Below are positions 42,001 to 63,253 of a stretch of DNA of 64,000 nt, piece by piece (within the stretch, counting starts at the first letter, position 1; each line of letters starts with the position of its first letter). The stretch comes from an uncultured Planctomycetales bacterium. GTDB taxonomy: Bacteria; Omnitrophota; Gorgyraeia; Aquiviventales; Aquiviventaceae. The stretch lies in NCBI GenBank assembly GCA_964373175.1, contig CAYJTP010000002.1, positions 40,402-104,401 of the forward strand. Reading direction: 5' to 3'. The notes under the pieces were generated by a model. That model saw only the letters and a program-made list of their open reading frames with translations, had not been told where the DNA came from and did not search any database. The position numbers and the translations under genes are program-made.

Positions 42001-45000
42001 AAGCGGTGAAAGACACCATCCGGACTTGGCATGTCCAAGAGATCGCCCGATTGATCACGGCGTTCGATGAACCCAAGCGGCCGATGGTGCTGGTGATCGG
42101 TGGAGACGAGCTGTTGACCAGCCGATCAATCGCTGAGCACAAGCCACTGGTGATGCACCAACCAGTCCTTCAGCAGGTCATCCAACGGATGAAGAAAGGC
42201 GATACCATCCTGGTGGGCGGCTACGCGGCCAGCGGCTTCCAGACGGCGCTCGATCTTGGTACGCCGCAGTCCGATGAGTCGGTGGACGAATTCCTGGTGC
42301 GCAAAGAGCGCGAGCTTGCCCCTGGGTTTACTACAAGCGACCTCGGCAAGCTCAACCAGGCTCAATTTGAAGAGGCGAAGGTCGCCTATCGGTTGCTTGA
42401 TCTCGCCCGGCAGCGAGGGGTCGAGGTACGGGTGGCGCAGATCAGCTACACCGAACCAGGGACAGGGCGCTTCAAGTATCATCCGGACCTGCTGGTGGAC
42501 GATCAAGAGCGCTTCATTCACAAGCTCCGGCATGCAAAGACCATCCTCTGGATCGGCCAAGCATTGGGTCTCACAGAGACCGCGACCACGACTGAGATCA
42601 AGCGCATCGCAATGGAACAGGTTGAGAAACGACAGACCGCCATCTACGTCAACGAGAATCCTGACCACCTCGAGGCGGCCCTGCACTTCCTGAACAGCGG
42701 CGGGTCGTTGCCTGAACGCTACCAGGCCCTTGAGCCAGAGGTGCTCAAACTCCTCCGCGGAGAGCCTGCTCAAACCAGAGAAGCGCCTGACACTTCAAAG
42801 ATAGCTCAACTGGCGGTGCTTGGACAGGTTCCAGCCGTTGATCATGCCAGTCGGGATACCTCACAACTAGCGGAATGGGTGCGCAAACATCGAGTTGGCC
42901 GTGTGACCATCAACCCGAACTGGGTTCGAGACGCCATTGTCAGTGGGTCCTACGACGACCTGATCCAGGATGGTCTTGCCAAGGACTATTCGGCACAACA
43001 GATCTACCGGGAAATCGTGGCTAATCTCGTGACTCGTACAGCTAATGTCCTCAGAGAACAGCATAAGGAAAGTCAGGGCCGGGATGGCATGGTGAGCATC
43101 CAGGTGAGCCCTGAAGCCTATCGTTCGGCTGAAGAGATCCTTGAAGAAGCACGGTGGATTTATGAACACACGCCAGAAAATGTGGACATCAAAATCCCTG
43201 CGACCCCCGAAGGCCTCAAGGCCATTGAGCAGGCTGTGGCTGAAGGCATTCGGGTGAATGTGACAAATCTGTTTCCAGATGTGACCTATGACACTGACCG
43301 TGATAAATTCCACGCCGAACAGTATGAGGCTGTGGTTGAAGCGTACCTGAAAGGGTTGGAGCGGTACGTTGAGCGCGTCCGGAGCCAGATGGCTCCTAAG
43401 CAGTTGCAAAGGCATCTTAGCCGGTTAGGTTCAGTCATCAGTATTTGGCTTCGCATGATTGACGACCTTGCGGATTCTCATCTTCCCGTCGAGTGGCGTG
43501 GAAAATTGAGCATCGCACAGGCGAAGGTGCTCTATGAACTTCATGAACGGCTCTTTCAGTCGGAGCGATTTCAACGCCTGGCGGTCCTCGGCGCAAGACC
43601 ACCCCGTCTCTTATGGGCCAATACCCGTGTCAAACCCGAGGTTCATTTTGTCCGATGGCACGGCCAAACTGGCTTTGATGAAACCCGAGAGTACTTCCAC
43701 TACATCGAACCACTCATCGGTCCAGACACGTTATCGACCATGCTTCCTGACACCCTTGAGCGCTACGCTCTCAACGGAGATCCGCAACCGCGGCTACGGC
43801 TTGGGGTAAATGAGGCAAAGCGCGCTGTCAAGGCCATTGCGCAACTCCTAGAGCGTGCAGGGACGAGTGCGCGAGAGATCCATGAGCGTGCAGTGCAAGA
43901 GAGCTTGGTAGCCTTTGGACATGCCGCGCAGCAATCTGTTGAGTATATTCAGCTCTATGAGTTAAGGCCAGCCATCAAAGATGTGATACTCGCGATTGAT
44001 CATCGGCTCAGTGACCAGGGTGGATTGGTGGCGATTGATGGGCCGTCTGCGGGCAGGAAAAACACGTTGGCGAAAGGGGTAGAAGGTCAGTATGAGAAAA
44101 CCCATCCTGGCCGCAGGATCGTTGTGCTAGACCTCGATGAATTGTATGTGTCGCGAGAGCGAAGACAAGCCATTATCAAACGGCTCATAGGAGACCAACT
44201 GACAGAAGCGGAGGAACAGCTGCTCACGGAGCACGACCGTGCGACGATGGAGCCAGGCAAAGACTACCTGCACGAAGAAGAGGTCGTTTGGAAGAACGAT
44301 ACGATCCTCGAGGTGTTGCAGCGGATTCACGCCTTTCTCAAGGCGGGCCATCCAGAAAACGCGGAGCTTTCTTTCAACATTGATGCGTACGATCACAGCA
44401 TTCGACAAACTCACCCGAAGCCTTACACGATCAAACGCGGGGACATCGTGTTGGTCATAGGGAAGTTCGCCAGCCGCGAGCCGCTTGCCCAGTTGTATGA
44501 TCTCAAGGTTCGAGTGCTTGATCATCTCAAGAGCGCCAGGCAGCGCTATGAAGCTCGAGAACGGCAACGGAGAACGTCCGAGGAAGCCGATCGCCTGATG
44601 AAGTTTTACGACTCAGCCCTTGTGCCGAGCTGGGAAGCCTACGACACACGGACCCGGAACCTCATTGACCTCGTTGTTGATCTCGGTAACGCCACAACCG
44701 CCTGGAAAGGCCCGACCAGTCCTCGAGCGCCTCCTGGAGCCCAGTCTTTCGCGAGCCTCTTGAGTGTCCTCGCAAACCCGCTCGTCTTTCTCACCACCTC
44801 ACTGGCGCTGGTCGTGGCGGCATGCACAAAGCCGACGGTGAAAGACTCCCTGGCGAGCCGAGCGCCTCTGGTCCTGACGGCTAGCGACTCTGCTCGCATC
44901 GCGCAGTTGATTGGGCAGTCCCGCGCCACCTATCTGTCTAGAGATTTCAAGGCCGCCTTGAAATTGTTCGAGCAATTGCAATTGCTCGCGCCGAATTTTG

Positions 45001-48000
45001 ACATGTACTACAACACGGGCCTGACCAGATTTCTGCTCGGCCAGCTTGAGCAGGACTCAGGTCGAGCCAAGCCCGCCCACGAGTACTACGAACGCTCCAT
45101 CGCGGATTTTGACACCTCGATTGCCCTCAAGCCAACCTTGGAAGCGTATTACCATCGGGGCCTGGCGTTCTACAACGTGCAGCAGGAAGAGAACGCCATT
45201 GAGGATTTCAAGCAGGCCCTGGCCTTTGAGGAGGCCTCCAGGCTTCCTCCGGGATCGCAGGCAGAGCTCCTGCGTGCCTTAAGCGCCGCGTACGTGGCTC
45301 ATCGCGACTACCAGGCGGCCCTCCTCTACAGCCACCAGTCGCTTGCCCTCAAGCCAACGTTGGAGGGTTATTACTACCGAGGGCTGGCGTTCTACGGTCT
45401 TGGCCAAGAAAGCGATGCACGGGCTGACGAGGCTGTCGATTCGGTTGAGCAAGACGCGGCGTTGCAGGAGGCCTATCAGTCTTATCTGGATGCTGCCGTG
45501 GATCTTGAGGAGGCGCTGGCCTCGGAGGAATTCTCGTTGTTAAGCCCGCGCACGCAAGCTGAGCTGCATCGAGCCCTTGGCGCGACCTCTTTTGCGCTTG
45601 CCGAGTATGGTGAGGCGATCAAGCAGTATGACGAAGCGCTTCGTCTTGATCCTGACAACGCTGAGCTGTACATCAGACGTGCTGAGAGTTATGCCCTTTC
45701 CGGATCGACGTGGTTTGCCATCCAGGATTTCAAGGAAGCGATTAAGCGAGGCGCAGAGCAAGCGGTCAAGGCCTCCCTCGCTAAACTCCGCAGGCTCGGG
45801 ATCGAGATTATCATCCCGATGATCCTCGCGCCGGTGGTCGGCCTCCTCGCCTGGGCGGCGCACCTGTTTGGGCTTGGTGGCGCGGAGCAGACGGCAGGGT
45901 TTGTGCTCAGCATGGCGATACCGATGAGCGTGCCAATCGCGAACGCGATTCGCGCAAGGTGGATCGATGTGCTTCCCGATCATGTGCGTTTTGGCAAGGG
46001 ACCGATTATTGACCAAGCCATTCGCGCGGCGTTCGCTCATGCGATCCAAAATCCTGAGCAAGATGCCGAAGGCGCCATTGTTGACACTGCACAAGCGCTC
46101 GCGGAGGACTTATTACCACCAGGCGCACAGGACAGCTACACCGCGCTCATCCAGCGCGCGCAACACCTGACAAGCGATCCAAGGAAGCTCGTGGTTCTCC
46201 TGCGACAGCCGCTTCTTGAGGCACAAGAGCTTAAGCTCCAGTTCACAAATGGCCGCGATCAGTCCATGCGCTTTTTTTATCGCTTTGATCTCAAAGAGCT
46301 AATTGGACAGCGGAGGAATGGAGATCGGCATCCCCAGAAGAAGCCGATGGGACCAGCAGCCACGGCCAAAGCGGAGCAAATCGCCGTCGCGCTCTGGGAA
46401 CTTCGCGATGAGGTCAAAGCTGGTTTGCTGGATTTTCCACGGTTTAGAAAGTACTTGGTCGTGCATGAACTGCGCAAACGCAAAGGCCAGCAGTTTCTCT
46501 CTCCTTGGACATTAAGTGTTTATCCCCGGCACTCCCAAGCCGTCCAAGAGGCCTTACGAGAGCTGAAGCGTGCGATCGAGGAGCGCCAGGAGCAAAAACG
46601 CCAAGCGGGGCAACTCGTCTACGACTACGTCCACGCGGAGCGGGCTGCCAAAGTGATTGATGAACAGCTCACGCAACTTGAGCAACAACTCGATCGTGGA
46701 GAAAAGCCACGCTACAAAGTCTCAGAGGAAACATTCTCCGGACACATCGATCTCTCCCGCCAAACGCTGGCCAAGCACCTCACGTGGAATCCGGTGTTTC
46801 GTACAAGGTTTGAGTCTTTGCAAGAGAAGACAAAGGATTTCCGCGATTACCTCTCGAAGGTCCTTCAGCGTCTCGCTTCGGAATATCCCGGCCGCTGGTG
46901 GACAGTCAAGAAAATCCGCCAACACGCCCAGATGACTGAGGTCGCTCACGATAAGACGTATCATGATTTGGAGCAGCTTGCCAAAGATCCGTCCTCAGGT
47001 GTGAAAAAGGAACCCAGAGCGAGCCGCAGTCCCTATAAACCCAATCGCTATCGCTTCGTCTCTCAAGGCACAGTCGTCCTTGCGATCCTCCTGCCGCTCC
47101 TCGGCGGCCTGGCCTATCCTCTGCACCTGATTGCGGGGGCAGGCGATGCGTTGCTCAGTGCGGTGTTGCTTGGTGGATTTGCTGGTTTTCTCGGTGTGAC
47201 TGTCTCACTCAAGCAACTGTCGGCGATTTTGCGAGACACCCTGAGAGAAGGATCAGACAAGCTCGTCACCCTCTACTGGTTAGCGAAAACTGAACTGGCC
47301 CTGGGCCATCTCGAGGAAGCCTATACCCGGTCCGCCTCCGGATTGGCCCAGGCCGTTGTCGCCCAGCAAACACTCAAGCTCACTGGTCGGGAACGCGAGG
47401 GTGAGCTGGCAGAGCTGGACAGACAGATCGCTGATCTGGTCGATCTCCACGCCAAGGTCCTCTTGAAACGAAGACACCACGACGATGTGGATCGCGCGAT
47501 CGCCATCTTATCCCAGGCGGTGAAGGACCACCCCGAGGCCTTCTTCCTCCGGATCACCCTCGCGAAGGCCTACGAAACCAAGACCAACACCCCAGGTCTC
47601 CACGAGAGCGACCGCCGCTTTGCCTTGAAGCAAGCGGAGGCGACAATCCGCAAGGCCGTTAAGGACCTCTCGACGTCCCCACAGTATTCCAGGATCGCTG
47701 AATCTTACGCGAACCTCCCCGCCTGGCAGGACCGAATTGATGAGGCGATTCACGTGCTGAGTGCCGGTGGGCGCCATGTGAAACGGCAGTTTCGAGGAAA
47801 TCGGTTGATCCAGCAATTGTTCTCTCACCTCGTCAGGCTTCGGGATGGCACACGGCGTTCGGGTAAGGCCGAGACAATCCTCAAGCTTGCCGTCGGATTC
47901 CTCAGCCTCAGACTCCTTGATTTGACCGTGCAAGCCCTCAGCCACGGTGCCTCTAAGAACATGGTATCTGATACCATTTCCCAGGCGACTCTCTTCAGGC

Positions 48001-51000
48001 TTGACACCCCTGACATCAACCTGACGCTTCTTGGGCTTCTCCTCACCGGGGCCGTGGTCCTCTGGTCGCTCTATCATTGGCTTGCCACGCGCTTCCATGC
48101 GCCGCCAGAAGCCGCTCCATTGAGTCGCTGGAGCGTCCCCGCCTCTGATCGATTTGCCCTCCTTAGTGGTGTGGTCAGCTTGCCGATGATGGCCACATTG
48201 CTGCCCTCCAAAGATCCTGACAGCAAGTTGGCTCGGGATGCAGAGGATTTACGTGAACAAGGCTGGACGGCTGAGCTCGTTCGGAGCGATCTGACCACGC
48301 AGCAGCTTCAGCACACCATGGACGCCATCTTGGATGGATTAGTGTTTTCCCCACATGATCGGCCGCTCGGCCTTCCGGCCTGGCTTGGTGAACAAGGGAT
48401 CGCCGACTCCTCGAGCCGCTTACCTCGAGCATGGGTCGAGATGGTCATTGGCGAGTTGCTCTGGAATTGGCAGAGGCAGCCTGCCAGTAGTCCGTCCTCA
48501 GGCGTCGCCAGACCTCTCTTGGTCGCCTACCGACGAGGCCACATCGTGAGCGAAGAGACCATCGAGCTCATCGCGCGAAACCTTGTGGAGGAGATCCCGA
48601 ACATCCGCGAGGCGGTGAGGCCTACTGAGGCTCAGCCTGTGACGGAACGCGGCCAATGGCTTCAGCGCATGATCGCCATCGTGGTGGGGATGTTGGATGG
48701 GGAGGTGGTCATTCGATCGCATGGCAAAAAGTCTCACTTCTTCCTGCCGCAAGGAGGCGTGGGCAGTTACACCCAGCTGCTCGAGGCGAGCACGTCCTTT
48801 GACTCCTATGTGACCAAGGGCACCTCCATCTCCATCAGAATCCCGACCGCCGCGTGGTCGGCAGATGCATCGGGGCGAGCGCTCAGACAGGGCAAGCGGC
48901 TCATGAGGAAGCGACGGTTTGCCGAGGCTGCCGCGGTCTTTGCCAACGTCCTGAACCGAACGCCAACGCACCTGGGTGCACTCCACTGGTTGGCGAAAGC
49001 CGAACTCATGCAAGGGCATCTTATAGCGGCTTTGGCGCGGCCGCTGTACGGAATCGCCCAGGCCATGATGAGCCGCTCGACCCTGCACACAGAAGATCAT
49101 GTGCACGAGCTTGCGAAGCTGGATGCCCAGACTGCTGATCTGGTGGATACCTACGCTCGTGTGCTCATGGCGCGACGGCATCCTGGCGAGGTGGATCGCG
49201 CTATCGCCGTCTTAACGGCGGCGGTCCAGGAGCAGCCGCACGCGTTCTTCCTGCGGATTACCCTGGCCAAGGCCTACGAAGCCAAAGCCGTCATCCCCGA
49301 CCTCCATGAAAACGAGCGACGCTTTGCCTTGAAGCAAGCCGTCGCCATCACCCAGCAAGCGCTTGCGGACTTCTCCGCGCATCCGAAAGTCCGCCTGATC
49401 GCAGCGTACGACGCCGGGCTGTTGTCCCGCCAGGGCCGCATCGAGGAGGCCATCCGCGTGCTCAGCGATGATGAGGGACGCCACGTGAAGCGGGAGTTCC
49501 ACGAGGATCAAGTCATCCGTCGGCTCTTGGACAAACTGGCGGCAAGCCGCTTGGCTGTTGGGGTGACACCGTGGGCGCTCTCGCAAGCCCCGGCGGAGCT
49601 CTTCTGGTCGGTGGTAGCACTCGGGGCGATCGGGCGCGTGGTGTTCTCGCTGCGGCGGTGGCTCGCGGAACGCTTCCACCGCGCACCGCAACCCGATACC
49701 GAGGCGCAGAAGTTGCTTGAGGAGGCGCGATCACGACATCAGAAGAGAGACTTTGCCGGCGCCGCCCACGGGTATCGGGAGTTTGGTCATCACCTCAAAG
49801 TGCGGGACGGTCTGGCGAAGACGGAACTTGAACGCGGTCATGACTTGGATGCGATCGCGCTCGCCAGAGAGACCCTCGCGTTGGAGCAGCGACTTCTCGA
49901 GACGGAGCACTATCTCGAGCGGGTGTTAGCGGCTGAGCAGATGCCGTTCACCCTGGAGGTCTTGATCGATGCGCTCATCGCGCAGAGGAACCATGCCGAA
50001 GCGCTCACGGTCGCTTCCAACGGCATTCGCGATTTTCCGGACAACCCGCGTCTTCGCGTGAAGCAGGTGAAGGTGTACTACAGTGCCAACGACTACGAGC
50101 TGGGAATCGCCATCGCGCGCGAGGCCCTTCAAGACCCCACGTTCGAGGAGAATCCGCATCTTCACGAAGTGCTCGCGGCTGGGCTGCGGCACCTCAAGCG
50201 GGCGAAGGAAGCCAAGCACGTCATGAGTTTTGATGGCCGCACCCTCAAACCGTGGCTGCGTGGCCATAAATCCGTCTATCCCACCTTTGCTGCCATCCTG
50301 GGCGCCGATGGCCACCCGTGGGAGGGGATTGACCAGTTGATGATCAATCGGCAGGTCATCAAGCGCGAGCTTCGCGACCACCCGGCTGTCTACCCGACCC
50401 TGGCAACCCTGTGGGGTCGCGTGGGTCAGTTTGACACGGGGATTGCGCTGCTGAGCCCGGATGGTGGCCGCACAGTCCAACCAAAACTCAGCGACCATCC
50501 GGCTTCGTGGACCGCACTCGTGGAGTTACTGGAGCATAGCGGGCGGCACGCTGACGCCCTGACCCTTGCGCGCGAAGCCAAGAAGAAGTTTCCAAGAAAT
50601 CCCGTTGTCCGTCGCACGCTGCAGCACATCGAGGCCTCCTTTTACCGCCCGGGTGGTCGGGGAAGACCAGACCTCCCGATCATCAGCGCCTGGCTGGTTG
50701 TCCTAGGGCTTGGATGGTTCCTGGACCGATTCCTGGATGTGGGGACCTCATTCTCAGAAGCTGCGGTGTTTGGAGATCTCTTCTGGCCAGCGCTGGTTCT
50801 CCTCGGGGTAGTCGCAGCGGCGTACCAGCATCGAGCGCTCAGTCCTCGAACCGCTCGTCGGCTCCGTGAGGCCATCGCCTATTTCAATCAGCAAATCAGA
50901 AACAAAGTCTTACGACTAAGACAACTCACCGAAGCGGATGTTGCCGGAAAGGCCGATGTGAGCCATACGACCATCTATTGGGCCCTCAAGATCACTGACC

Positions 51001-54000
51001 CGTCGCAACAAGACATCAAGCGAGGGCTCATCCGACTGTTGAAGTCGGAACGCGCGACCATACCTCCATCCTGGCCGGGATCCCCTGAGACCCGCAGGGA
51101 GCAACTGGTCGGGCAGATCCTGAGCGCCATCCAGGATCTCACGCGACTTGCCGGTGAAGGAAAGATTCAGCGTTACTCGACGGCTGAACTCGTGGCAGCT
51201 CATGTCAGGAAGATGACCGGTGATCAGACAATTTCCGACCATGAAGTCCGGCAATTGATCGCGCATCGCAAGAACCTCCAAGATGCCATGGGGGTCTTGC
51301 GGAAGAGCACGGAGTCCTTCCACTTCCAGCCAAAGCCGCGTCCGAAGAAGACACCCGGATCGAATCCGCTCAGGGTATTCGCCGCCCCGCTGCTCGTGGC
51401 CATCGGCCTGTGGGTCGGTGGGCTCGAAGGGCACTTGCTGGCCGGGCTGGGCGTTGTGCTCAGCGTGATCGGGTTTGGCGGGCTGCTGCTGGCAATGCGA
51501 CCGGTCAGACAAGAAACAGAATCAGAACTCAAGCCAGGCGAGATTGCGGGAGGCGTCCAGCAGGAGCTTGGCGCGGTCCAAGCATCCAGCCCATCCAAGA
51601 ATCAAGGGGACCTGGTCAGTCTTGACCAACATCGCCCACAGCGGCAGGGGTGGCGAGGTATGCTTGGCATCCAGCAGTTTTCCAGTCACCTTCGCCAAGA
51701 CCGCGTCAATCTCGGCGTCTTTCCCTGGGACGAGGCCACGCAGCGGCAGTTCGCCCAGTCGTTCAGCACGCAACGCGGGCCACAACGAGATGGGGATCAC
51801 CGAGTAGGGAGCGCCCGTATCGATGATGGCCAGATGGTCATCACTCCACCCAACAGACTGTCTGAACTGGACTCGACCCAAGAGTCGAGACAGGAAGAGT
51901 CGACGACGACGGCGGCTGGCCTCGAGGTCCCGCACGCGCTGGACCTCAAGGGCGACGCGCATATACGTGGATTCCGGCCTCGAGGAACAAATGCGGGATA
52001 TGCGGCCAGTCAAGCTGCTGGCGAGCTTTCGCGAGCACCCGGATTAGATGCGGACCAACAGCCAACACTCGCCGGTGCGCAAAGGCGACCCATTGATTCG
52101 GGTAGCGTGTGGCCAATTCGGCATAGTGCGCAAAGGCCCAATCGTACTCCCGCTGAAGAGCCTCTGGAAAGAGCGCTGTTTGAACCGACATCAGTTTCAC
52201 CGACCTCCACCTCGACTATAACCGACGATGAAGAGGCTGTCAAGCCAGACCGCTTCTCCGACCTTATCGGTGGGCTCGAAGGGCACTTGCTGGCAGGGCT
52301 GGGGTTTGTGCTGAGCCTCGTCGGGTTTGGCGGACTGCTGGCGATGCGGAAGATTGGCGGAAAGGAACAGCTAACAGGCAAGGCAAGAAGCGCGAATAGG
52401 CAGAAGACAAGCCGTCAAGGAATGCCGAGTTTTTCTTCCACAACTTTCAAGCGGGCGTCGAAAGTCTTCATCTCGGATCTGATCGCACGGATTTCAACAA
52501 GGATCAGGTCGGCGTCTTTCCGAAGGTTGCCGACGTCTTTCGACAAATTATCCACCTTTGTGCGAAGGTCAACGAGCCCTTCAGCGACGAGGCGGATCTC
52601 ATGGCGAAGCGACTCGATGAGCGCGCCGACTTCGGTCACCGTGAAGGCGTCTTTGGAAGGCCGTTTGGATGGAGGCATGAACGCCATTCTACGCAGGACA
52701 GGAGCACCAGTCAAGGAACATCGGGATGACTCGGTTGCGCCAGGTGGCCTCCTGACCCCGATGGGGGGATTCGTGCTCATAGGGATCGGGCTCCTGGCCA
52801 AGCATCTGATGGGGCTTGCGCTCTTCGGGACGGTGGCGGAAGTGGTGGGCGTTGGGCTGACCGCGCTGTGGGCAGGTTGGAATACGACTCTTCATTCAGC
52901 GTCTCAGGTACTGTCGTGGAGGGTGAGAGCGCTACCGAAAGATCTCATAGCCATCACTGCGCAGCACGAGGACTTTTCCACGCAACCACCGCTCAGGTCT
53001 GATCTTCAACAAGTTCCTGACAGCCTGGGTGATCGTTTCAGCCATGGGTGGGTGGATGCGGATCACGACAATTCCGGACAGCTTCGAGGGCAGGAAATTC
53101 AGGAAGTCCCGGTCACGCGTGAACAGGATCGCGCCTTCCCGTTCGGCAAGCGCAGCGATGGTCGCGTCGGTCGCACGGGGGGACGGACGGATGACGTGAT
53201 GCCCCACCCGGCGCAGGAAGGCTTCCGTCTGTCCAGGGATATGTTCGTCAAGCAGCACACGCACAGCGAGCTACGCCTTGAAGGCCACGAATTCCCGGTG
53301 CTTGAATTGCTCAGCGGCGTACTGCAGGGCGGCGCGAATGTGCTGCGGGGTCAGCTGGGGAAAATATTTCTTGGACGTGATCTCGGTGCTCGAAACCCCG
53401 GCTCCAAGCAGCTCAAGGACATCCGAAACCAGGATGCGAGTCCGCCCAAAGCAGGGTTGGCCATGACAGATGGCTGGGTCCACGTCGATCAGCTTCTCAA
53501 GGGAGTTTTTCATCGCCACCTTCACACTCCTCCTAAGAAGGATAGCATCCTCGCTCCTCGTCGTCAAGGCACGTCTTCTGGAGTACTCAACGTGGGGTTC
53601 AGCGCAGAGACCCTTGCCGGGCGGTGGCCGGAGGGTTCGCCCATCTGGATCGCGCCGGTGGTGGGGCTGCTCGGGTGGGAGTTCCTCGTGGCGGGGTTGA
53701 AGATGGGCGGCCTAGAGGGGGTGGCGCTCGCGGGCTTTGGATTGGCACTTGGCCTCTTCGGGTTTGGCGGGCTGCTGCTGGCGACGCAACGCGGTGGGAG
53801 AGTAAAGGGGAGGGAAGCACGGCTTAGAAGCTACCGGGTTCCCAAAGAGGTGGCCGAGCGTTATGTCACTCCGGAGATCCTGACACTCTTCGAAGTGGCT
53901 GAACAACTTGGACTCAAGATCAAAGCAACCGGCGGGACCGCGCGGGATTTTGCCGTGTCTGTCATGACACAACACCCGCTTCGACTCCCTCGCATCACCA

Positions 54001-57000
54001 ATTTTGATGTGGCGATCCCACTGGCTCCCCATCAGAAGCCCTCAGAATTGTTCAACGAATCAGCCTACCAGAGGTTTGCGCAAGCCTTCGAACAGGCCCT
54101 TCGAGCCCGTGGCGTGCTCAAGCCAAACCAAAAGATGCCTGAGGTGGATTTCATGCCAGGCGTGTATGTGGAAGGAGCCGGCTACATTTACCAGATTAAC
54201 ATGAACATCCGACCCACAAAGGAGCGGCCTGAGATTGGCGAGGCATTTTCGATCAGCAAACTGGCGGTCAAGAAAGAAGGCGACGGGTTTGTGATTGAAG
54301 ATCACGTGGGCGCTATGGCCGACATCAAGGCTAAGCGCCTTCGGATTATCGCCACACCCGGACGGTTACTCACCGAAGGGATGCTGGGGAAGATGTTGGG
54401 TCGATGGGCGGATTACCGGAAGCTGGGATTTGACTTTGACCGGCCATCGAGGCAGCTGATCCAGCAGTCGGTGAACGCGCTCCGGCATACCACACCAGCA
54501 GACCAAAGCACCTTTGTGAGCTTGCTCCTCGACAACAGCCAAACGCAGCAGGATCTTCTCTTCGTGATTGACCAGTATCGATTAGACGAGGTCTTGGGGG
54601 TACGGCGAGCCTCCCTGGCAAGACGATTCAAACGGCATGAGCGCGCGTCGACGGCTTCCTCCGCGGCTCCTGATCCAGTCAAAGCCTTCGTCACACAGTA
54701 CCTGCAAGCCAACTACGGCCAGTTCAACCTGTGGGCCAACACCGAGGCCGTTGTGGATGCGGTGGTGAACCGCCTGTATCCGTCGCGGGATCCAGCAGCG
54801 ATTGAGCAAGCGCGAGAGCAGTCGGGGATTGGCGTTGCGGGAAGTGACTTTACGAGGCGCTATGATGACTATCAACACGATCAGAAACTGGAGCTGACCT
54901 ATGAGCTCATTCGAGAATTTCTTACAGGCGGAGTGGTCGTGGATGTGGGGGCTGGGAAGAATCTGTTGGCGCGGAAGCTGGCTGAAGAAATCCCAGGGAT
55001 CAAGGTGATCGGGACGGATGTCTTGGATTGGCATGAGGAATCGTCCGATCCGAGAGTCGAGTATCGAAAACAACTCACCCCTGAGCGAGTCCCTGTTGAG
55101 GATGAGAGCGCCGACGTCGTGATACTCCAAAGCGTCCTCCACCACATCACGGATGAGCATCTTGACAGTCTCTTGAAGGAGGTCCACCGAATCCTGAAGC
55201 CGGGTGGGAAGGTGCTCGTGTTAGAGAACACCTTCCCGGAGACACCCGAGGTGCTCCAGACCGTGAGGGACCAGGAAGGCTTGTCGGAGTTGAGCAAAGC
55301 CTTCCTGAGCTTAAACCCAGCGCAACAGCAAGCCTTCTTCGAATTTATGGATTGGTATGGCAACGTCTTTGTGAAGCAGCAGTCTGACATGCCCTTGTCC
55401 TTCAATTACAAGTCGATCGAAGCCTGGAAAGCACTGTTTGACCAGCATGGATTGGTGACGCGCACGGATCGGTTCATCGGCTTTACCCCGGGCCGCTTCC
55501 ACTGGCTGGCCACCGGCCTCTTCGTGTTTGAAAAAGTGTCCAGCGAGCCTCCTATCTCATCCATCCTGAAGCGCCATCCGTACTTGAATGAAACGCAACT
55601 GAAGCGTTTCGCGCAAGGCGAAGCCGGGTTTGCGGTCACCCGGAGACTGAGATGGACTTTGGAGAAGCTGGATCAGTTTCTGACCGGTTTGGAGCAGGTG
55701 AGCGGGATCCCCTTGGACAAGGCAGTACAACTCGTTGTGGAACCCGCTGAGATGTATCTGATCAAGCAGGTTCGCGATGAGCGGGCAGGCCAATATCTGA
55801 TCAACCTTGGCAATTCCATGTATCCTCCAGATGTTGTCATCCAAGCGGCTGGGTACGTAGGGACTCATGAAGGCCATCACTACCTTGACGAGCTTAATAT
55901 GGTTGACGCTTCTGGTCTTGCAGAAATGGGGGGTTCTGGTGGCACGACTCGCCGAGGCTCAATCTTGGAGCAGTTTGATCGGATGGTAAGCGACGCGGCT
56001 CGAATGAATCCGATGATGCGTGGGCTAGCAGGTCGTCCAGATCTATTGTGGATGGTGGAAGAGCTCAGCGTTGATAGTGATACGGCTAACACACTCGGTG
56101 CTCGCGTCGTCAAGAACTATCTCCCCCTTGCGGAAGCTCGATTGGCTTATCAGGAACGTCAAGCAGAGAGTCCTCGCGGAGTTGTTCCTGGTCTTGCGGA
56201 GCTCGTCCGGTATGAAACCGTCGCACGGGAATATGCATGGATCGAAGGGGTCGATGGGGCATCCCGCGAACGTCTCAAGCGCGTGGAGGAGGGGTACGCC
56301 AAGTTAGCCAAGAAGGCCAAAGACTACTCGGAGGCCAAATACAAGTTCTTCCTCGGTGTGTTCACAAGCATCTACCGGATGACGAGTTTGCTCAAACCAC
56401 GTGGTGGGCGGTGGCCGAAGCGGCAGCCGTGGTATGACCGCCTGGAAGCGCGCTACGGGTGGTTCGTGGGACAGGTGCTGGCGCCAGCGCTCAGAGAGTC
56501 CGGATTCTTTGTCGGTGGCGGGAGCTTGCTACTCAGTTGGGCCTTTGGGATTCCGCTTGAGCTGAGGCCTCCAACCGTGGCACTGCTAGCTGGATTCCAA
56601 ATCCTGTGGCACCTCCGCCATCTACCGGGTGCCGAAGGCAAGACCTTGGCTCAGAAACTCGCCGCGGCGTTCTCCGCTGAGAAACTCCTCATCACCGGCC
56701 TGACGGTCGCGCTTCCCAGCCTCCTGCTGCTAGATCCCAGCAGCCCATTCCATCCGATCGGCGTCGGCTTCGTGGCACTCATCCTCGGCGTTGCGTCCTT
56801 ACCTCACGCCTTCATCAACCTCGTCACACCTATCCAAGATGGTCGTGTGGTAGGTGTCCGCGACGCGGGATCTGATACCGTCGGCAGGCAGGCGGATGGG
56901 TCTGGTCGCACTTCGCAGGACTCACCGTTGACCATCGTGGAGATGGTGTACGCTGACCTAACCAACACAGGAGGCTTGGAAAGCTACTTGCGGGAGCTTC

Positions 57001-60000
57001 ATCGCGAGCTCCTCACCCACCCAGGGATTCGAATCCATGCGCTGTATCCGGTGCAGGCCGCGCCAAGGACGTTTGAGGAACGCGCTGACAATGGGAGCAC
57101 GCTCGTTCATCACCAGTTTGTGAGACAACGTCCTTGGGTGAAGGTTTCGTGGCGCTCACCGTGGGGCTCCCTTCAGCAGAGTGCGGAGATCTTCCGCAAC
57201 CTCCGTCAGATCATTCGGCAAGAGCAGGTTGGCGTCCTGCATCTCCATACGCCGTTCTATTTCCCCGCGCATCTGGCGTTTTGGTTGGCGGGCGTGTGGT
57301 ATCGCATCCCCCGTGTGGTGACCTCGCACCAGACACACGCAGGGGGCTCGAGATGGTTCTTGCGCACCATCCACCAGCTTGGTGCCAAGGTGCTTCCTCT
57401 TGGCGCGGCGGAAGTCACCGGGGTGAGCGACGCGGCGGCCCGCAGCCTGAAGCGCAAGGCCTCTATCATCGGCAGCGGGATTGACACGCACTTCTTCACC
57501 CCGCAACACGGCCGGGGCGATGCGTTTCGGCAGCGTGAGGGGCTCTCAGCAGAGGTGCCACTGATCGTTTATCCGGCTCGGATCGATCCTGAAAAGGGCC
57601 AGCGGGATCTTTTGGATCTGGCCGAGGCGCTTCGGGCCAACGGCCTCAAGGCTCAGGTCGTCATGATGGGACCAGTCGCTGATCCCTCCTACGTTCAGCT
57701 GCTCAGCGACGACATCATCGCGCGGGACCTGTCAGAGATCGTCCACATCTTGCCCGCTGGGACTCCTGAAGAGGTGCGCGACGGCTACGCGGCTGCCACC
57801 GCGGTGGTGTTTCCTACCTATTCGGAGGCGTTGGGCCTTGTGGCGTTGGAAGCCAGCGCGATGGAAAAACCGGTTGTGGCCTACGCGACAGAAGGCGCGC
57901 GGGAAGCGGTGAAGGATGGCGAGACCGGCTACCTGGTCCCGACCGGCGATGTCGAGGCGCTTAGCCGTCACGTGATTCAACTCTTACAGGATGAGCCACT
58001 TCGTCAACAGGTGGGTCGTGCGGGTCGGGCTTTTGTGGAAGCCCGCTATTCGCTTGAGCAGTTAGCCAATCGACATCTTGCGCTGTACCGACGTGTGGCC
58101 GGCCGCGACGCGGACGCGGTATCTGATACCGTTACTGAACTGACGTCGCAAGCGATTCGCGCGGGTCTTGAGCGGCTCATTCGGGAAGGGAAGGGACTAC
58201 TTGTTGCCAAACCTCAGAAGGGCCCAATTACACAGTGCTACCTGGACTGGGGAGGGACGTTGAGCAATCTGACGCCGGAAGAACGGCGCGCGGCGCTTGA
58301 GCTGTTTCGCGCGCGCGGGATTGAGGTCAACATTCTCACCACGGCCAGCCCCGAGGCGATCGCCAGGCAGCTTGAAGCGGAAGGCAACCTGCCCTTCTTG
58401 CGCTCCATCATTCACGCCATGGGCAGCTCCTCAGGGAAGGTCCACGTCGCCCGCTATCAGGACTCAACCGGCCAAGACACTCCCATCGTCCTGGTCCACT
58501 CGCCTACGACCAAGGCCGGCTACTTGAATTCGCTCCCTGGACAGGGCCGCGTCCTGTTTGTCGATGATCAGGCGACGCATTTTTACATCACCTCAGGACA
58601 GGTCATCCGCGTCGGCGTGATCGGCAAGGGCGTCACGAGGTTAAATGACCTGCTCGGCGAGGACACGGAGTTGGCGGAGTATTACCTGGCGTCCCTCAGC
58701 GACCGTTCCTCCCTTGATGAGTTGCTCACCGCGGTATCTGATGCCGTATTGAGACCAGAGACCAGCCCGCCCCCCCGGCCCGACGCCGGCGACAGCCGGG
58801 GCGGGCGGCGGATGCTTTCGGCGGGCCGGGGAGACCAGCCCGCCCCGGCGGATGCTTTCGGCGGGCCGGGGAGACCAGAGACTCGAGTGGGCATGACTGA
58901 CAACGAGGTCATGAACGGATCGGTGAGTTACTCCGACAATCGCTTGCACAGGGCTCTTGAGCGGCGGGCCGACAAGCTCGCGCGGCTCTTTGGCAATCTC
59001 GAGTACCAGCTCATCGAAGACCTCAACCCAATCACGATGGATCATCGGCTGCCGCGCGAGTTTGCGCGGGTGAAGCTGCCGCTCTTGGCGATGCTCGTGG
59101 CCGACCACCTCATACCGAGCCACCGGACGTCACCGAAAGAGACGCTGCGTGGAGAACTGCGCGAATTCATGATGCCCGATGGGGTGACGCTGCGCGGCCA
59201 GTGGTTCAAAGTTGAAGGAGATGGCCCTGCCCCCGTGGTCGTGTTCATCCCGCCCTGGGGGATGTCGAGCAGCCAGTACGAGTCGCTCGTCGACACCTAT
59301 CGCCAAGAGGCCAACGTCCATGTGCTGCTGCTCAACCTGCGCGGGCAGGGCTTGAGTGAGGGGGAACTCACGACGCATGGCGCGGAGGACGTCGATGACG
59401 TGCAGCGCGTGCTGCAGATGCTGCGCGCCAGCCAGGAAGTCAGCACCCAGCCGATCCTCCTCCATGGCACGTCGCTTGGCGCGCTCGTCTCTCTGCGGCT
59501 TAAGACCCTGTTTCCTGAGCTCATCCAAGGCGTCTTGGCTGAATCGTGCCCGCCCATCCAGGCGCACGCCATTCAGCGGTTCTTGCAAACACAACTGCAA
59601 GACCGCTACGGCAAGGTCTTGCAACAGCTCTATCCCGAGGTCGCACGCCAGGATCCTGATTTCTCGAACTTGGCGAGCGAGACCGTACCGCTCCTTGAGC
59701 GGGTGTTAAGCCATCGCCTCGGGCGCTCCATTCACCTCATGCGGCCCATCGATGACCTCAAGACGGCGCAGGGGCCGATCACCTTCCTGTACGGTCGCGG
59801 TGATCACGTGATCCCGGCGAATGAGCAGTTGGACATAGCTCGTGCGGTGAAAGAGCGCCTCGATGCTGGTGAGGGCATCCAACTCTATCGGCTCGACGGC
59901 GGCCACCTGGCGATGAGCAACGATCCGCAGTACGCCACGGTGATCTCATCCGTTGTCCGTGAGGTCATGGTTCAGGCTTCGTCCAATGTCTTCGAGCAGA

Positions 60001-63000
60001 GGAGCTGGGGAAGGTTGCGCAGCGTGAGGAGGACCTTGCTCGGGGCCGGCATGATCCTCACAGGGATCGGCAAGTTGATGGGACACCGACCGCTTCTCGC
60101 AGTCGGGTTATCGCTCGCTAGTCTTGCCGTCAGTCTGCTCGCGTTGAAGGTCTTCCCGCAGACCTACCGGAGTATTGAACAAGCGGTCACGCGGATCAGT
60201 CAGGCAAAGCCTCTGCCGACCATTGTGCTCATGGGCAGTTGGCTCATCGCGCTGGTGTCGTTGATGGCCGTGTGGAGCGTGGGGCTGTTGATTGGAGGGC
60301 GGATTCTTGAATGGGTGACTGCCGGCTTCTCTCTGCAGGGAATCGACACGTCGTTCTTGAGTCCGGTGCCGTGGGTCGCGTTGCTTGCGGGCGGGGTGTT
60401 CCTGGTTAAGGCGACCCTCCTGTTTGGCTCAGACAATGGGGTGCCATTCGAGCGCTCATCCCAGGTGCGCCCAGCCTTGAGGACGAACCTACTCTTCTAC
60501 GGAACGCTCCTGTTGGCCAATCTCCTGATGGCGTTGGGGTTGTCGTCCCATATCGGCACGCTGATCTTCCTCTATCAAAAACCCATGCCGTTACACCACG
60601 GGGATGGGGTCATCGCGCTGGCTGGCATGGCGGCGCTGTGGGGGATCGTGACTGGCAGAACCGCCTCGGTGCTGTGGCGAGAGGTGGGCCAGCGGCTTTC
60701 GGCGTGGTGGGCGCGCCACCGCCACTTCTTCGTGCCGTTTGGCCTGATGGCGACGATGAACGGGCAGACGACTCCGTCCTACTACGAGGCGGTGCAGCGA
60801 GTCTTGCCACCTCACATGGCTGGTCGTCGTAAGGTAGCCCACTATATCGTGGAGCGGTTTGGGAGCCGATGGGACGAAGCGCTCTCCATGATGGGTGGCC
60901 ATCTCCTTAACCGCACCCGTTGGCCCTTCATCGACCGAGCGCTCAAGGCTGGGCTTTCGATCACGGCTATTGCAGATTTGCTGCATTACTCCCACACCGT
61001 GGATGAGCAGAAGACGGGGGTCAAGACATTGCTAACGATAGAAGATTTCCCTCCCGAGTTTCAGGAGCTCGTCCTGACCCATAGTCAAAGCCGCCGAGGA
61101 TTTCATCGCGGGTCGATCAATTTACTGTGGACGCTCTATGAGGTTCTGAGACCTACTGGAAGTCCTGCGCCATCGGCCATCGAGTTTCCCGCATGGCTTA
61201 AGTTTGGATCGAGTGCGTCCCAGGCTGAGCGAGCGCTTCTCGAAACTCTTGAACGACGCGGCACGGCGGTGACTGATGAAGAACTCGTGCAAACGGCACG
61301 GAAGATTTTTGAGCTTCAAAAAGCCCAACGTCGTCGCTTGATTCCTCTCTATGCGTCTGACGGTGGTCCCTTGAGTGAACAAGACGTTCCAGTCCAGTTC
61401 CTCTCACCCGACTCCCCCCTCAAGTTTACCGTCCGGCAACGTGTGTTCTACGAGTTTCCTTCGCAGCCAACGAGCCATCCATCGCTTGATGCCTGGTTGA
61501 CCGATGAGTCACTGTATCAGTCGTTACGGCCGTTTCTCGCCAATCAACCTGAGGTATCATTCCCGCTGCTGTTGGCGAGTGTTGCCTTTGAGCCTGAGCG
61601 CGCCGATCGCATCGACACTGTTGAAGAGCGGTTCCTGCAAGTGTGGTTGCATCTGAGCAACCAGCTCCCAACAACTGTTCGGCAGCGGTTGCAAGGTCTC
61701 GAATCAACCATGGAGCAGGCATTTCGCCTCTTTGCTGCCCAACAGGGATTTGTACGTGTCAGAGCACCAACTGGAAGTCGATGGTTCAGCCACACCGCTC
61801 ATCTGTTGCACCGCAACACGATTGAGCGGTTGAACAGCCTGTACCGCGACGCAGGGTATCGGTTGGTGTTTGAGGATAGCCAGTTCTGGTGGGAACGAAA
61901 CCTCGCGACGGTGCCGAAGACAAACGGCTCTGTTTCACCCTTTGGAGTTGGCTTGGGCCAGCTCTTCACCCCTGAGGTCTGGCGGGATCTTGCCCAGCGG
62001 CTTTCGGCGTGGTGGGCGCGCGGGGTCTTAGGCGTGAACGGGAAGGTTAATATTCACGAGAAAAAGGGTACGAAAAAGGGTACCGGTTCTCATTTCTCGA
62101 CGCCGGACACGACCCCCATTACCTTCGGAGCCGATGCGGGTTTTGGGGAGCTGCTGAGGCGGCTTGGACAGGTGCCTCGAGCCTTCCAACAGTTGTTGCG
62201 CCGCGCCGTGCTGCCCATCACCACGCTCCAACCCGGCCCCTCGGTACCTGGTACCGGAGCCACAAGACCCAAGGCTCAAGGGAACGGATCAATCCTGCGC
62301 AGGCTCAACGAGCGGTTGCCGAGGAGCTACTGGTTCAATGGGGTGGCGATCGGGACCTTAGGCTTAGCCGCCTATTGGCTCGGGCTGATTCCGCACAGCG
62401 GGGAAAACTGGTTGCAAGTCCTCGCCAAAACTGTCGGCGGCTTCGTGGTCTTCTGGACGGTATCTGATACGCTCGCCAAGCGCAGCACCAGCGAGCCCAT
62501 CACCGGCAAGGGGCTGCGCGGTGCCGCCAGCGCCGGGTTGATTAACGGCCTGTACACGCTGGGCTTCTTTGCGCTCATCGCGCTGATCCCTGAGCCGATC
62601 GGTGCGCCGGCGCGTGTGTTCTTGGTGACGTTCCTCTTGATTGCGTCACGAAATTGGATTTATTCGAAGCTGTTCCACAGCCACGCCAAGGAGGCGCAGG
62701 ATGCGTGGCTAGTCAACCGGAGAAAAGAGGCCTACTGGTTTAGCCGTCCCGCCTCCATTCTGAAGAATACGATCATCCAGGCGCTCCTGCCGCTTCCGGT
62801 GCGGGGGCCGGTCGAGGCGATCATGACCCAGTGGTTCCAGCAGTACTACGCCTGGGCGTTCCATGTGCGCCGTCCATCACTGATCAGCCGGCCGCAGCGG
62901 GTTTCGGCGATCCAGCGGATGGTCTTTCCGTGGCATCGGGGTCCGGCGCTGATGGTCTACGGCCTGGTCGCGCCGGTGGTAAACGCTTGGGGAGGTGTGC

Positions 63001-63113: not shown

Positions 63114-63169
63114 GGGGTCAGACCCTGTGCGGGAATTTTGTCAGTTTTCGTGCGAAGGGTCTGACCCTG
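63114..63169. repeat. REP-like palindromic element ~50 nt after the giant ORF stop
   Basis: The arms gggtcagaccc (63115-63125) and gggtctgaccc (63158-63168) form a stem of about 12 bp with a ~30-nt loop. No U-tract follows. It is the same family as 36423-36480, in the opposite orientation. Confidence 0.75.
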
Positions 63170-63253
63170 AGCACGCTCACGGCAGGGGAACAGGGAAAGA
63201 GGGGACTGTCAAGAGTCTTCCAGGGCTCTCTTAGTACAAGATAAAAAAAGCAC

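Follow-up and report, generated by a model that had tools for sequence, protein, structure and literature searches.

In-frame coding repeats separate predicted antisense gene cassettes within a giant Omnitrophota-type open reading frame

How can a gene of more than 20,000 codons hold complete small genes on its opposite strand and still be read from end to end? The question is raised by a 64,000-nucleotide (nt) stretch of contig CAYJTP010000002.1 (positions 40,402 to 104,401, assembly GCA_964373175.1), from an uncultured bacterium deposited as Planctomycetales and placed by GTDB in the Omnitrophota; this whole stretch is called the window below. One plus-strand open reading frame (ORF) of 21,014 codons, without an internal stop, spans nearly all of it, and an initial annotation had noticed three direct repeats (R1, R2 and R3) bracketing minus-strand gene cassettes within it. 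Our favoured explanation, which we regard as rather probable, is that R1-R3 are in-frame copies of a linker of the giant ORF separating three autonomous antisense cassettes, and that units of linker plus cassette are reshuffled by recombination between the linkers.

R1, R2 and R3 form a single direct-repeat family. A repeat finder returned three copies, at 51415-51488, 52267-52340 (89% identity) and 53704-53777 (66%), spaced by 852 nt (R1-R2) and 1437 nt (R2-R3), both multiples of 3 as first reported, and all in frame 0 of the giant ORF. The shared blocks lie where they had been described: a 26-nt core (GGTGGGCTCGAAGGGCACTTGCTGGC), with which R1 and R2 both begin, occurs in the window only at 51417 and 52269, and a 25-nt core (TCGGGTTTGGCGGGCTGCTGCTGGC), common to R1 and R3, only at 51469 and 53758. 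R1 is a mosaic, its 5' 26 nt being those of R2 and its 3' 25-nt block that of R3; apart from one codon indel, R1 and R2 differ by five third-position and three first-position changes. No further copy of either core was found in the 64 kb at up to three mismatches, shuffled sequences gave 0, and the self-BLAST E-value of R1 against R2 is 8e-21. As the cores are unique and the E-value is this low, the repeats cannot be put down to generic GC-rich low complexity, a doubt raised when they were first described, and their positional association with module boundaries is significant (see below). A catalogue of linker repeats, made by comparing the giant ORF with itself at the protein level, showed nothing else like R, what remained of the internal repeats being ordinary domain duplications; no Rfam family was found at 50.5-54.5 kb.

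In translation all three copies read GGLEG..AG.G..L...GFGGLL(L)A, and each is a Kyte-Doolittle hydrophobic segment, R1 and R3 being the second helices of hairpins and R2 a lone helix. The hairpin described earlier between cassettes 2 and 3 is also present, as a hydrophobic segment (c/d) not recognisable as R in the DNA, where only a 20-nt, 80% match to R3 is seen. A hydrophobic stretch of at least 19 residues stands at all four cassette junctions in the window; the four junction intervals are mostly hydrophobic, a property that a random interval of equal size has with P = 0.08-0.12 in each case and about 1e-4 jointly. Judging by hydropathy, on which the transmembrane status of the linkers is based throughout, the linker in the window is probably a membrane-spanning helix. 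A second in-frame direct-repeat pair occurs elsewhere in the window (38453-38521 and 39182-39250, 88% identical, spacing 729, a multiple of 3); it encodes 'GTLFFEAGSAVLVG' hydrophobic helices and brackets a sense-coded multi-helix membrane segment without antisense genes.

The intervals between the repeats hold three minus-strand cassettes (Table 1): DUF5678 with a retropepsin-like protease (cassette 1), a small coiled-coil gene (cassette 2), and DUF433 with DUF5615/PIN-like (cassette 3). Cassette 1 and its promoter fit between R1 and R2 as tightly as had been claimed, with 22 nt from the end of R1 (51499) to the protease stop codon (51522) and R2 starting 25 nt past the -35 hexamer (52243); the R3 hairpin comes after the -35 hexamer of cassette 3. 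The promoters of the cassettes all follow the pattern TTGACA-17-TAnnnT. Three of them match the sigma-70 consensus at 9-11 of 12 positions, against 0.6 expected, and the other window sites matching at 10 or more positions lie only past the end of the giant ORF. By these signals each cassette appears autonomous, with its own predicted promoter, ribosome-binding site or leaderless start, and stop codon; the cassette 2 mRNA is the one that is probably leaderless. The DUF5678 gene overlaps the start of the protease gene by 17 nt. The DUF433 and DUF5615 genes are co-oriented, 6 nt apart and behind one upstream promoter, which is the gene organisation of type II toxin-antitoxin modules, and we take them as a putative toxin-antitoxin pair; homologues of the DUF5615/PIN-like protein were found at 59-67% identity. 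Cassette 2 has a homologue, with 42% identity, at 1833-2138 of one of the further loci described below (L004).

The protease has 24 homologues at 54-73% identity, nearly all of about 146 amino acids; over 22 sequences the DTGA motif does not vary, and ILGWxGCLD varies little or not at all. Its AlphaFold2 model (pLDDT 73) has as top Foldseek matches in the PDB only retroviral proteases (FIV, EIAV, HTLV-1; probability 1.0, TM-score 0.55-0.63, E only 5e-3), and its Pfam RVP match is below threshold; on the catalytic motif and the modelled fold, the 146-residue product is predicted to be retropepsin-like (clan AA). A database protein of 1,902 residues (P0030) has 24 separate stretches that match the protease profile at positions 54-89. 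Beyond a weak coiled-coil match, PADLOC assigned no defence system, and NCBIfam gave only sub-threshold VapC matches. Exact look-ups of the PIN-like and DUF433 proteins returned no called gene, and gene callers probably keep just the giant ORF at the cassette genes.

Table 1. Features of the giant ORF and its cassette array in the window, and linker repeats of the other loci
Feature	Coordinates or repeat length	Strand	Repeat spacing (nt)	Basis
Giant multi-enzyme ORF	21..63065	+		ORF scan, Pfam, hydropathy, codon-usage frame model
Hydrophobic helix a1 FAAPLLVAIGLWVGG, first half of hairpin ending in R1	51366..51420	+		Hydropathy
R1, linker copy 1, encodes GGLEGHLLAGLGVVLSVIGFGGLLLAM	51415..51499	+		Repeat finding, translation, core searches
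Cassette 1 gene 2, 146-aa retropepsin-like aspartic protease (predicted), DTGA motif	51522..51962	-		Homologues, AlphaFold2/Foldseek
Cassette 1 gene 1, 81-aa DUF5678 protein	51946..52191	-		Pfam E=7e-6; GGAGG Shine-Dalgarno
Cassette 1 promoter TTGACA-17-TATAGT, 11/12 consensus	52215..52243	-		Promoter scan
R2, linker copy 2, single helix GGLEGHLLAGLGFVLSLVGFGGLLAM	52267..52349	+		89% identical to R1
Cassette 2, 87-aa coiled-coil protein, without family assignment	52415..52678	-		L004 homologue
Cassette 2 promoter TTGACT-17-TAGAAT, 10/12	52686..52714	-		Promoter scan
Hydrophobic hairpin c/d, between cassettes 2 and 3	52731..52877	+		Hydropathy
Cassette 3 gene 2, 110-aa DUF5615/PIN-like (Mut7-C) putative RNase toxin	52932..53264	-		Pfam E=1.5e-13
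Cassette 3 gene 1, 80-aa DUF433 putative antitoxin	53271..53513	-		Pfam E=1.6e-18; GGAGGAG Shine-Dalgarno
Cassette 3 promoter TTGACG-17-TATCCT, extended TG	53539..53567	-		Promoter scan
Hydrophobic helix a3 IWIAPVVGLLGWEFLVAGL, first half of hairpin ending in R3	53637..53700	+		Hydropathy
R3, linker copy 3 GGLEGVALAGFGLALGLFGFGGLLLAT	53704..53787	+		66% identical to R1; exact 25-nt block in common
L002 repeat	39 nt		852	
L003 repeats	47 nt and 58 nt		858 and 1497	
L004 repeat, four copies, between different cassettes			831, 525, 627	
L006 repeat	31 nt		831	
L009 repeat, four to five copies, between different cassettes, two of them 99% identical	261 nt (two copies)		762, 1017, 1710	

None of these minus-strand genes interrupts the giant frame. 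A codon-usage model trained on the window gave frame +0 as the best of six in 1032 of 1047 sliding windows, the sole exception being 51.6-53.4 kb, where minus-strand frames score best, and from the cassettes this frame runs on into real coding sequence on either side. Relative to the giant frame, the five cassette genes are distributed over three phases, and there are 0 stops in the 712 codons across the array. From the antisense stop densities elsewhere in the giant ORF (1.3% in the codon-aligned frame, 3.4-4.4% in the other frames), we estimate that 12-15 stops would be expected. When the amino-acid sequences were held fixed and synonymous codons redrawn with host usage, the probability of finding no stop over the five genes was 0.067 x 0.228 x 0.877 x 0.264 x 0.312, or about 1e-3; the promoter and spacer DNA of the array, not counted in this product, is likewise stop-free in the giant frame.

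The same arrangement recurs elsewhere. Further loci were taken from contigs carrying protease homologues, from species-representative genomes scanned with a protease alignment and from the contigs of the three nearest PIN-like homologues; this gave 12 of them (L002-L007, L009-L011 and L012-L014), in NCBI/ENA metagenome-assembled genomes (MAGs) and in Logan, JGI and ENA metagenome assemblies, with GC contents of 0.45-0.68; L004 and L012 come from the JGI data set 3300009444. In all 12, the strand opposite the cassette has one frame without a stop along the full length (100%) of the cassette, and this frame nearly always extends to the contig end or ends. It covers all 12,226 nt of L009 and all 8,236 nt of L011, where GC content is 0.45 and the protease gene has 0 antisense stops against 4.1 expected (P = 0.008); in L002 it is continuous with a called gene of 6,471 amino acids and comes after another of 18,166. 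All cassettes seen, three in the window and, among the other loci, at least 15 identified with confidence, run antisense to the long ORF, and the proposal that payloads can be inserted in either orientation is not supported. This exclusive orientation is expected, since stops are rarest (1.3%) in the antisense frame that is aligned with the codons.

The homology of the window to the other loci is bounded by the protease stop codon on one side and by the -35 hexamer on the other (a core of 716-734 nt), and for cassette 3 it runs from start codon to stop codon. The giant-strand translations of the flanks have nothing in common at E<1e-6 except one module of L009 and L010 and one unrelated domain; the enzyme modules beside the arrays are dissimilar, whereas the cassette proteins keep 54-73% identity. 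Order and content also vary. The window has cassettes 1, 2 and 3 in that order, and L004 has cassette 2 before cassette 1; in L003, cassette 1 is paired with a DUF6722 gene, L010 has two cassette 1 copies and DUF6722, and L009 carries, along the cassette strand, BrnT/CopG (BrnTA), cassette 1 and then two DUF433/DUF5615 pairs of the cassette 3 type. The small DUF6722 membrane-protein genes (L003 7491-7703 and L010 1339-1581) are a further antisense cassette type found beside the DUF5678/protease cassette. In L011, the protease gene at 3671-3958 has an internal deletion (95 amino acids, DTGAPFSVL being joined directly to VDSEDVPLILGW) that closes neither the protease frame nor the opposite frame of 8.2 kb. 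Shifts of phase in the long frame were seen in L002 (8555-8865 in giant orientation) and L010 (4669-4760), just upstream of, or between, cassette arrays and with 90-310 nt of overlap between the open frames; a genuine boundary between genes, programmed frameshifting or an indel in the assembly could account for them.

Comparison across the loci points to selection on the two strands. The fractions of sites that differ at codon positions 1, 2 and 3 are 0.26/0.21/0.49 for the protease and 0.20/0.18/0.52 for DUF5678, and the same DNA that is about 68% identical between loci as protease is only about 41% identical as giant-frame translation; by this bias and this disparity, the cassette proteins are under purifying selection. 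Over the cassettes the giant frame is unconstrained in amino-acid sequence and only kept stop-free. A zero-stop antisense frame was found for each of the other cassette genes examined, and one L009 DUF433/DUF5615 pair reaches zero antisense stops in phases differing from those of the window pair. Locus by locus, zero stops have a probability of 0.06-0.20 in the protease and of 0.15-0.37 in DUF5678, with a joint value of about 1e-10, these resampling probabilities being approximate and synonymous sites being assumed independent between loci. Both strands of the array are thus constrained, and the antisense of the cassette 1 promoter is read as 'STI..D..AVK' in the giant frame in most loci.

The search for bracketing repeats covered L002-L007 and L009-L011, of which seven (L002, L003, L004, L006, L009, L010 and L011) have long enough flanks and two (L005 and L007) are too short to be judged. 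In five of these seven (L002, L003, L004, L006 and L009; Table 1) the cassette stands between direct repeats specific to the locus, and all 12 spacings, including the two of the window, are multiples of 3; that of the L009 interval holding the cassette 1 homologue is 1017. With the junction statistics given above, this recurrence bears out the modular architecture of linker, payload and linker that had been proposed from the window. Differences between repeat copies fall at giant-frame codon positions 1, 2 and 3 in pooled numbers of 25, 28 and 51 (chi-square p of about 0.02, an estimate with one non-independent pair removed), and this third-position bias means that the linkers behave as translated sequence. 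The R motif of the window (GGxGGxLEG) is absent from all the related loci. The sole match of a degenerate R pattern in a metagenome scan (L001) was rejected as a chance match on an unrelated high-GC contig.

The linker peptides are hydrophobic or signal-peptide-like (an h-region followed by A-x-A) in most loci, and linkers of these kinds ending in A-x-A (LLAAAPAWAQ, LLAAAPALAG, LVAAAPALAQ and LTLASPAGAQ) lie beside cassettes in L003-L006, L010, L012 and L013. The 261-nt linker of L009, the peptide of which is non-hydrophobic, is similar to the beginning of the module downstream. The description of the linkers as transmembrane helices thus agrees with the hydropathy of the window, where all four junctions are hydrophobic, and applies often but not universally elsewhere, those of L009 and L002 being non-hydrophobic; the general feature is therefore an in-frame direct repeat between cassettes, of which the helix is a local form. 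The signal-like linkers have the look of internal Sec signal peptides, with a basic n-region, a hydrophobic core and A-x-A followed by Q or G. They were seen on the giant strand at L004 892-919, L005 ~1040-1100, L012 ~655-720 and L013 ~130-200, the full ends being LLAAAPAWAQG, LLAAAPALAGG, LVAAAPALAQM and LTLASPAGAQG; the R repeats of the window are without A-x-A. Cleavage of the giant polyprotein by signal peptidase at A-x-A linkers is a possibility suggested by these sequences.

We propose that recombination between linker copies, whether by unequal crossing-over or by excision of a circle and Campbell-type reintegration, may add, remove and rearrange units of linker repeat plus cassette. 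Homologous exchange between copies would delete, duplicate or transpose whole units and, because these direct copies share one frame and a spacing divisible by 3, would leave the giant ORF intact. As any stop would truncate thousands of downstream codons, only antisense, stop-free cassettes would survive; payloads of toxin-antitoxin type might then persist through addiction, and the giant protein would accommodate the hydrophilic 'junk' peptides (135-257 amino acids) as additional loops set between its hydrophobic or signal-like linkers. The variable content and order of the arrays, the mosaic R1 and the 99% identical copies in L009 fit with exchange between repeats, and recombination of this kind is plausible.

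Several observations weigh against this proposal. No empty site, excision product or strain polymorphism was present among the retrieved loci, so that mobility through the repeats is something we infer. From locus to locus the cassettes have diverged by about 30% in nucleotide sequence, and any transfers are thus old. The linker repeats are locus-specific and would give a cassette no homology to a new host gene, for which reason its first arrival there needs another mechanism. No flanking repeat was found in L010 or L011, L002 and L009 have little or no hydrophobic linker, and L007 has no hydrophobic boundary. The window array has seven hydrophobic segments, an odd number of membrane passes; seven are counted with helix a1 and six without it, and the positive-inside rule gives no clear topology. 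Several of the supporting contigs are shorter than 2 kb, and for either strand the support is that of sequence.

The locus-specific repeats could alternatively be scars, each cassette having come by duplicative insertion into a linker with a target-site duplication of about 30-260 nt, the copies then diverging with no role for recombination. Local target duplication would produce locus-specific repeats, and cassette 1 is flanked by the most similar copies both in the window (R1/R2 89% vs 66% for R3) and in L009 (99% vs 76-90%), which fits a latest insertion; the resemblance of the L009 linker to the start of the downstream module is also in its favour. This account, however, needs target duplications of 80-260 nt, which to our knowledge are the product of no known transposase or integrase, and no such enzyme was found in the cassettes. 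The mosaic of R2-like and R3-like blocks in R1 suggests exchange between copies, and the four-copy arrays of L004 and L009 would need repeated insertion at exactly the same kind of site. We think that insertion scars are an unlikely explanation, although the best of the alternatives.

A somewhat less likely explanation still is that the repeats are fences at the protein level. A membrane helix or signal-like segment would have to flank each antisense-encoded stretch (looping it out, holding it on one side or allowing it to be cleaved), the cassettes would be ancient and their flanks diverged, and local duplication, selection and gene conversion would keep the fences alike. The four hydrophobic window junctions, the hydrophobic or A-x-A linkers beside the cassettes in L003-L006, L010, L012 and L013, and the bias of repeat-copy differences to synonymous giant-frame positions all agree with this, as does the report that giant Omnitrophota proteins are largely sequence-unique (bioRxiv 10.64898/2026.06.07.730766). 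The non-hydrophobic linkers of L009 and L002 do not, and simple vertical descent fails to explain the varying order and neighbours or the two cassette 1 copies of L010. The dissimilarity of enzyme modules lying beside cassette proteins that stay 54-73% identical also speaks against this reading.

Sedentary chromosomal integrons, such as the superintegrons of Vibrio, hold cassettes of 0.5-1 kb, many of them toxin-antitoxin genes with their own promoters, between repeats that are homogeneous within an array. The loci described here resemble them in their short cassettes, in payloads of toxin-antitoxin type, in repeats alike within arrays and differing between genomes, and in content and order that vary between genomes. 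An integron-like array, that is, an attC cluster without integrase that happens to lie in a long open frame, is nevertheless very improbable, and we rejected it. R1-R3 have no attC-type hairpin potential, since neither strand, folded as single-stranded DNA, surpasses its shuffled versions (z from -0.8 to +1.3); on reading the sequence we saw no R''/R' core motifs, and no integrase domain is present in the 64-kb window. Unlike attC sites, the repeats are coding, in frame and always a multiple of 3 apart, with third-position bias, and the complementary strand of the whole array is read into a giant protein, in a frame open far past chance. That the array is nothing special, an intergenic gap between two separately translated giant genes left open by GC-rich codon usage, can hardly be credited: the long frame does change phase just upstream of, or between, the arrays of L002 and L010, gene callers set gene starts after cassettes and aligned antisense frames are stop-poor in GC-rich DNA, but zero stops were found in 13 of 13 loci, one of them at GC 0.45, the window genes lie in three phases with promoter and spacer DNA stop-free too, and the resampling probabilities multiply to about 1e-10.

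The arrangement also has partial parallels in other systems. In Rhs and CdiA loci, the big gene's own repeated stretches provide the homology for recombination that swaps modules, and their orphan arrays likewise combine a very large gene, toxin-type cassettes and repeats of the big gene's sequence. Those orphan cassettes, however, are promoterless fragments of the big gene lying downstream of its stop codon in the same orientation, whereas each cassette here is a whole, unrelated operon that lies inside the ORF in antisense orientation. As with inteins, a selfish element would survive in a gene by not interrupting the host reading frame; inteins are encoded on the sense strand and remove themselves, whereas here the complement of an antisense element is apparently translated as filler, without a splicing motif. 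The payloads are like type II toxin-antitoxin modules (BrnT/BrnA; DUF433 with DUF5615/PIN-like) in their two small genes and Pfam matches, but ordinary loci of this kind are free-standing, with an unconstrained complementary strand, and these are nested in an ORF.

The host ORF itself has the features of the giant Omnitrophota proteins described as a 'multi-enzyme metabolic cluster' class (West-Roberts et al. 2023, bioRxiv 10.1101/2023.11.21.568195; Nielsen & Lui 2026, bioRxiv 10.64898/2026.06.07.730766), the sequences of which are reported in the latter study to be largely unique. Its 21,014 residues exceed the 10,000 that define such single ORFs. More than 15 unrelated Pfam families are tiled along it, many of them enzymes and none dominating: CofD, a full-length cytidylate kinase (260 bits), HAD, NAGPA, ROK, several methyltransferases, HATPase, response regulators, HTH repeats, acyl-CoA dehydrogenase, transaldolase, TPR, GT4/GT1 and alpha/beta hydrolase. 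By hydropathy, 43 merged hydrophobic segments, mostly hairpins, sit between its modules. ROK, HAD, GT1, HATPase, methyltransferase and response-regulator domains and dozens of hydrophobic helices are likewise characteristic of the described giants, whose architecture does not include a nested antisense cassette array. A homologue search with 1,500 residues of the plus frame across the array gave one match only, to a methyltransferase domain, and the nucleotidyltransferase-like module downstream of R3 found no relatives in the genome-contig scan. The window is without marker genes; by the labels of their depositors, the nearest relatives are Candidatus Omnitrophica/Omnitrophota, and other cassette-bearing MAGs are Planctomycetales or Elusimicrobia. 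A text search of the two preprints gave 0 mentions of antisense or embedded genes, and no description of this arrangement was found in the searchable literature on giant Omnitrophota genes, DUF5678 or nested antisense toxin-antitoxin genes. In the literature searched, the host gene class and the payload families are thus known, and the nested, repeat-fenced, stop-purged antisense cassette array is undescribed.

Long conserved antisense overlaps in bacteria are usually rare and disputed, and the present loci offer 13 independent examples (at least 16 cassettes), of 0.6-3.5 kb, in which selection is demonstrable on both strands. Since gene callers miss cassette genes or split the giant ORF, catalogues of giant genes and censuses of toxin-antitoxin systems in these phyla are biased. 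The loci also suggest how giant genes may tolerate, and perhaps accrete, foreign DNA, if the only insertions to survive are stop-free, linker-fenced and a multiple of 3 in length. Strong predicted antisense promoters within a 63-kb transcription unit imply head-on transcription conflicts, and might regulate the distal 3,000 codons. Addictive cassettes could in turn stabilise a recombination-prone giant gene against deletion, as has been proposed for the toxin-antitoxin cassettes of superintegrons. One might speculate further, and here we are more tentative than about the window itself, that giant Omnitrophota-like ORFs are platforms for dedicated antisense cassettes with evolved stop-free complements, exchanged as linker repeat plus cassette by frame-preserving recombination. 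Such platforms would be a functional analogue of the integron, built on coding repeats in place of attC sites, and hundreds of residues of the giant protein would be translated filler dictated by genes of the opposite strand.

Some further features of the giant ORF lie away from the array. Given the complete cytidylate kinase domain (15700-16320, residues 228-433 of the second 5,000-residue piece), one may ask whether cmk also exists as a gene of its own in this genome or whether the bacterium depends on the module. Five tandem HTH-containing repeats of about 67 residues each, 44-47% identical, occupy 37131-38123, and a TPR-like module is duplicated at 47403-47635 and 49107-49339, about 1.7 kb apart (74% identity in nucleotides, 55% in amino acids over 137 residues). 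An inverted match of 59 nt (83%) links the interior of the ORF (36423-36481) to the intergenic region just past its stop codon (63114-63172), which also holds two strong divergent promoter-like sites (63254 on the plus strand and 63305 on the minus strand).

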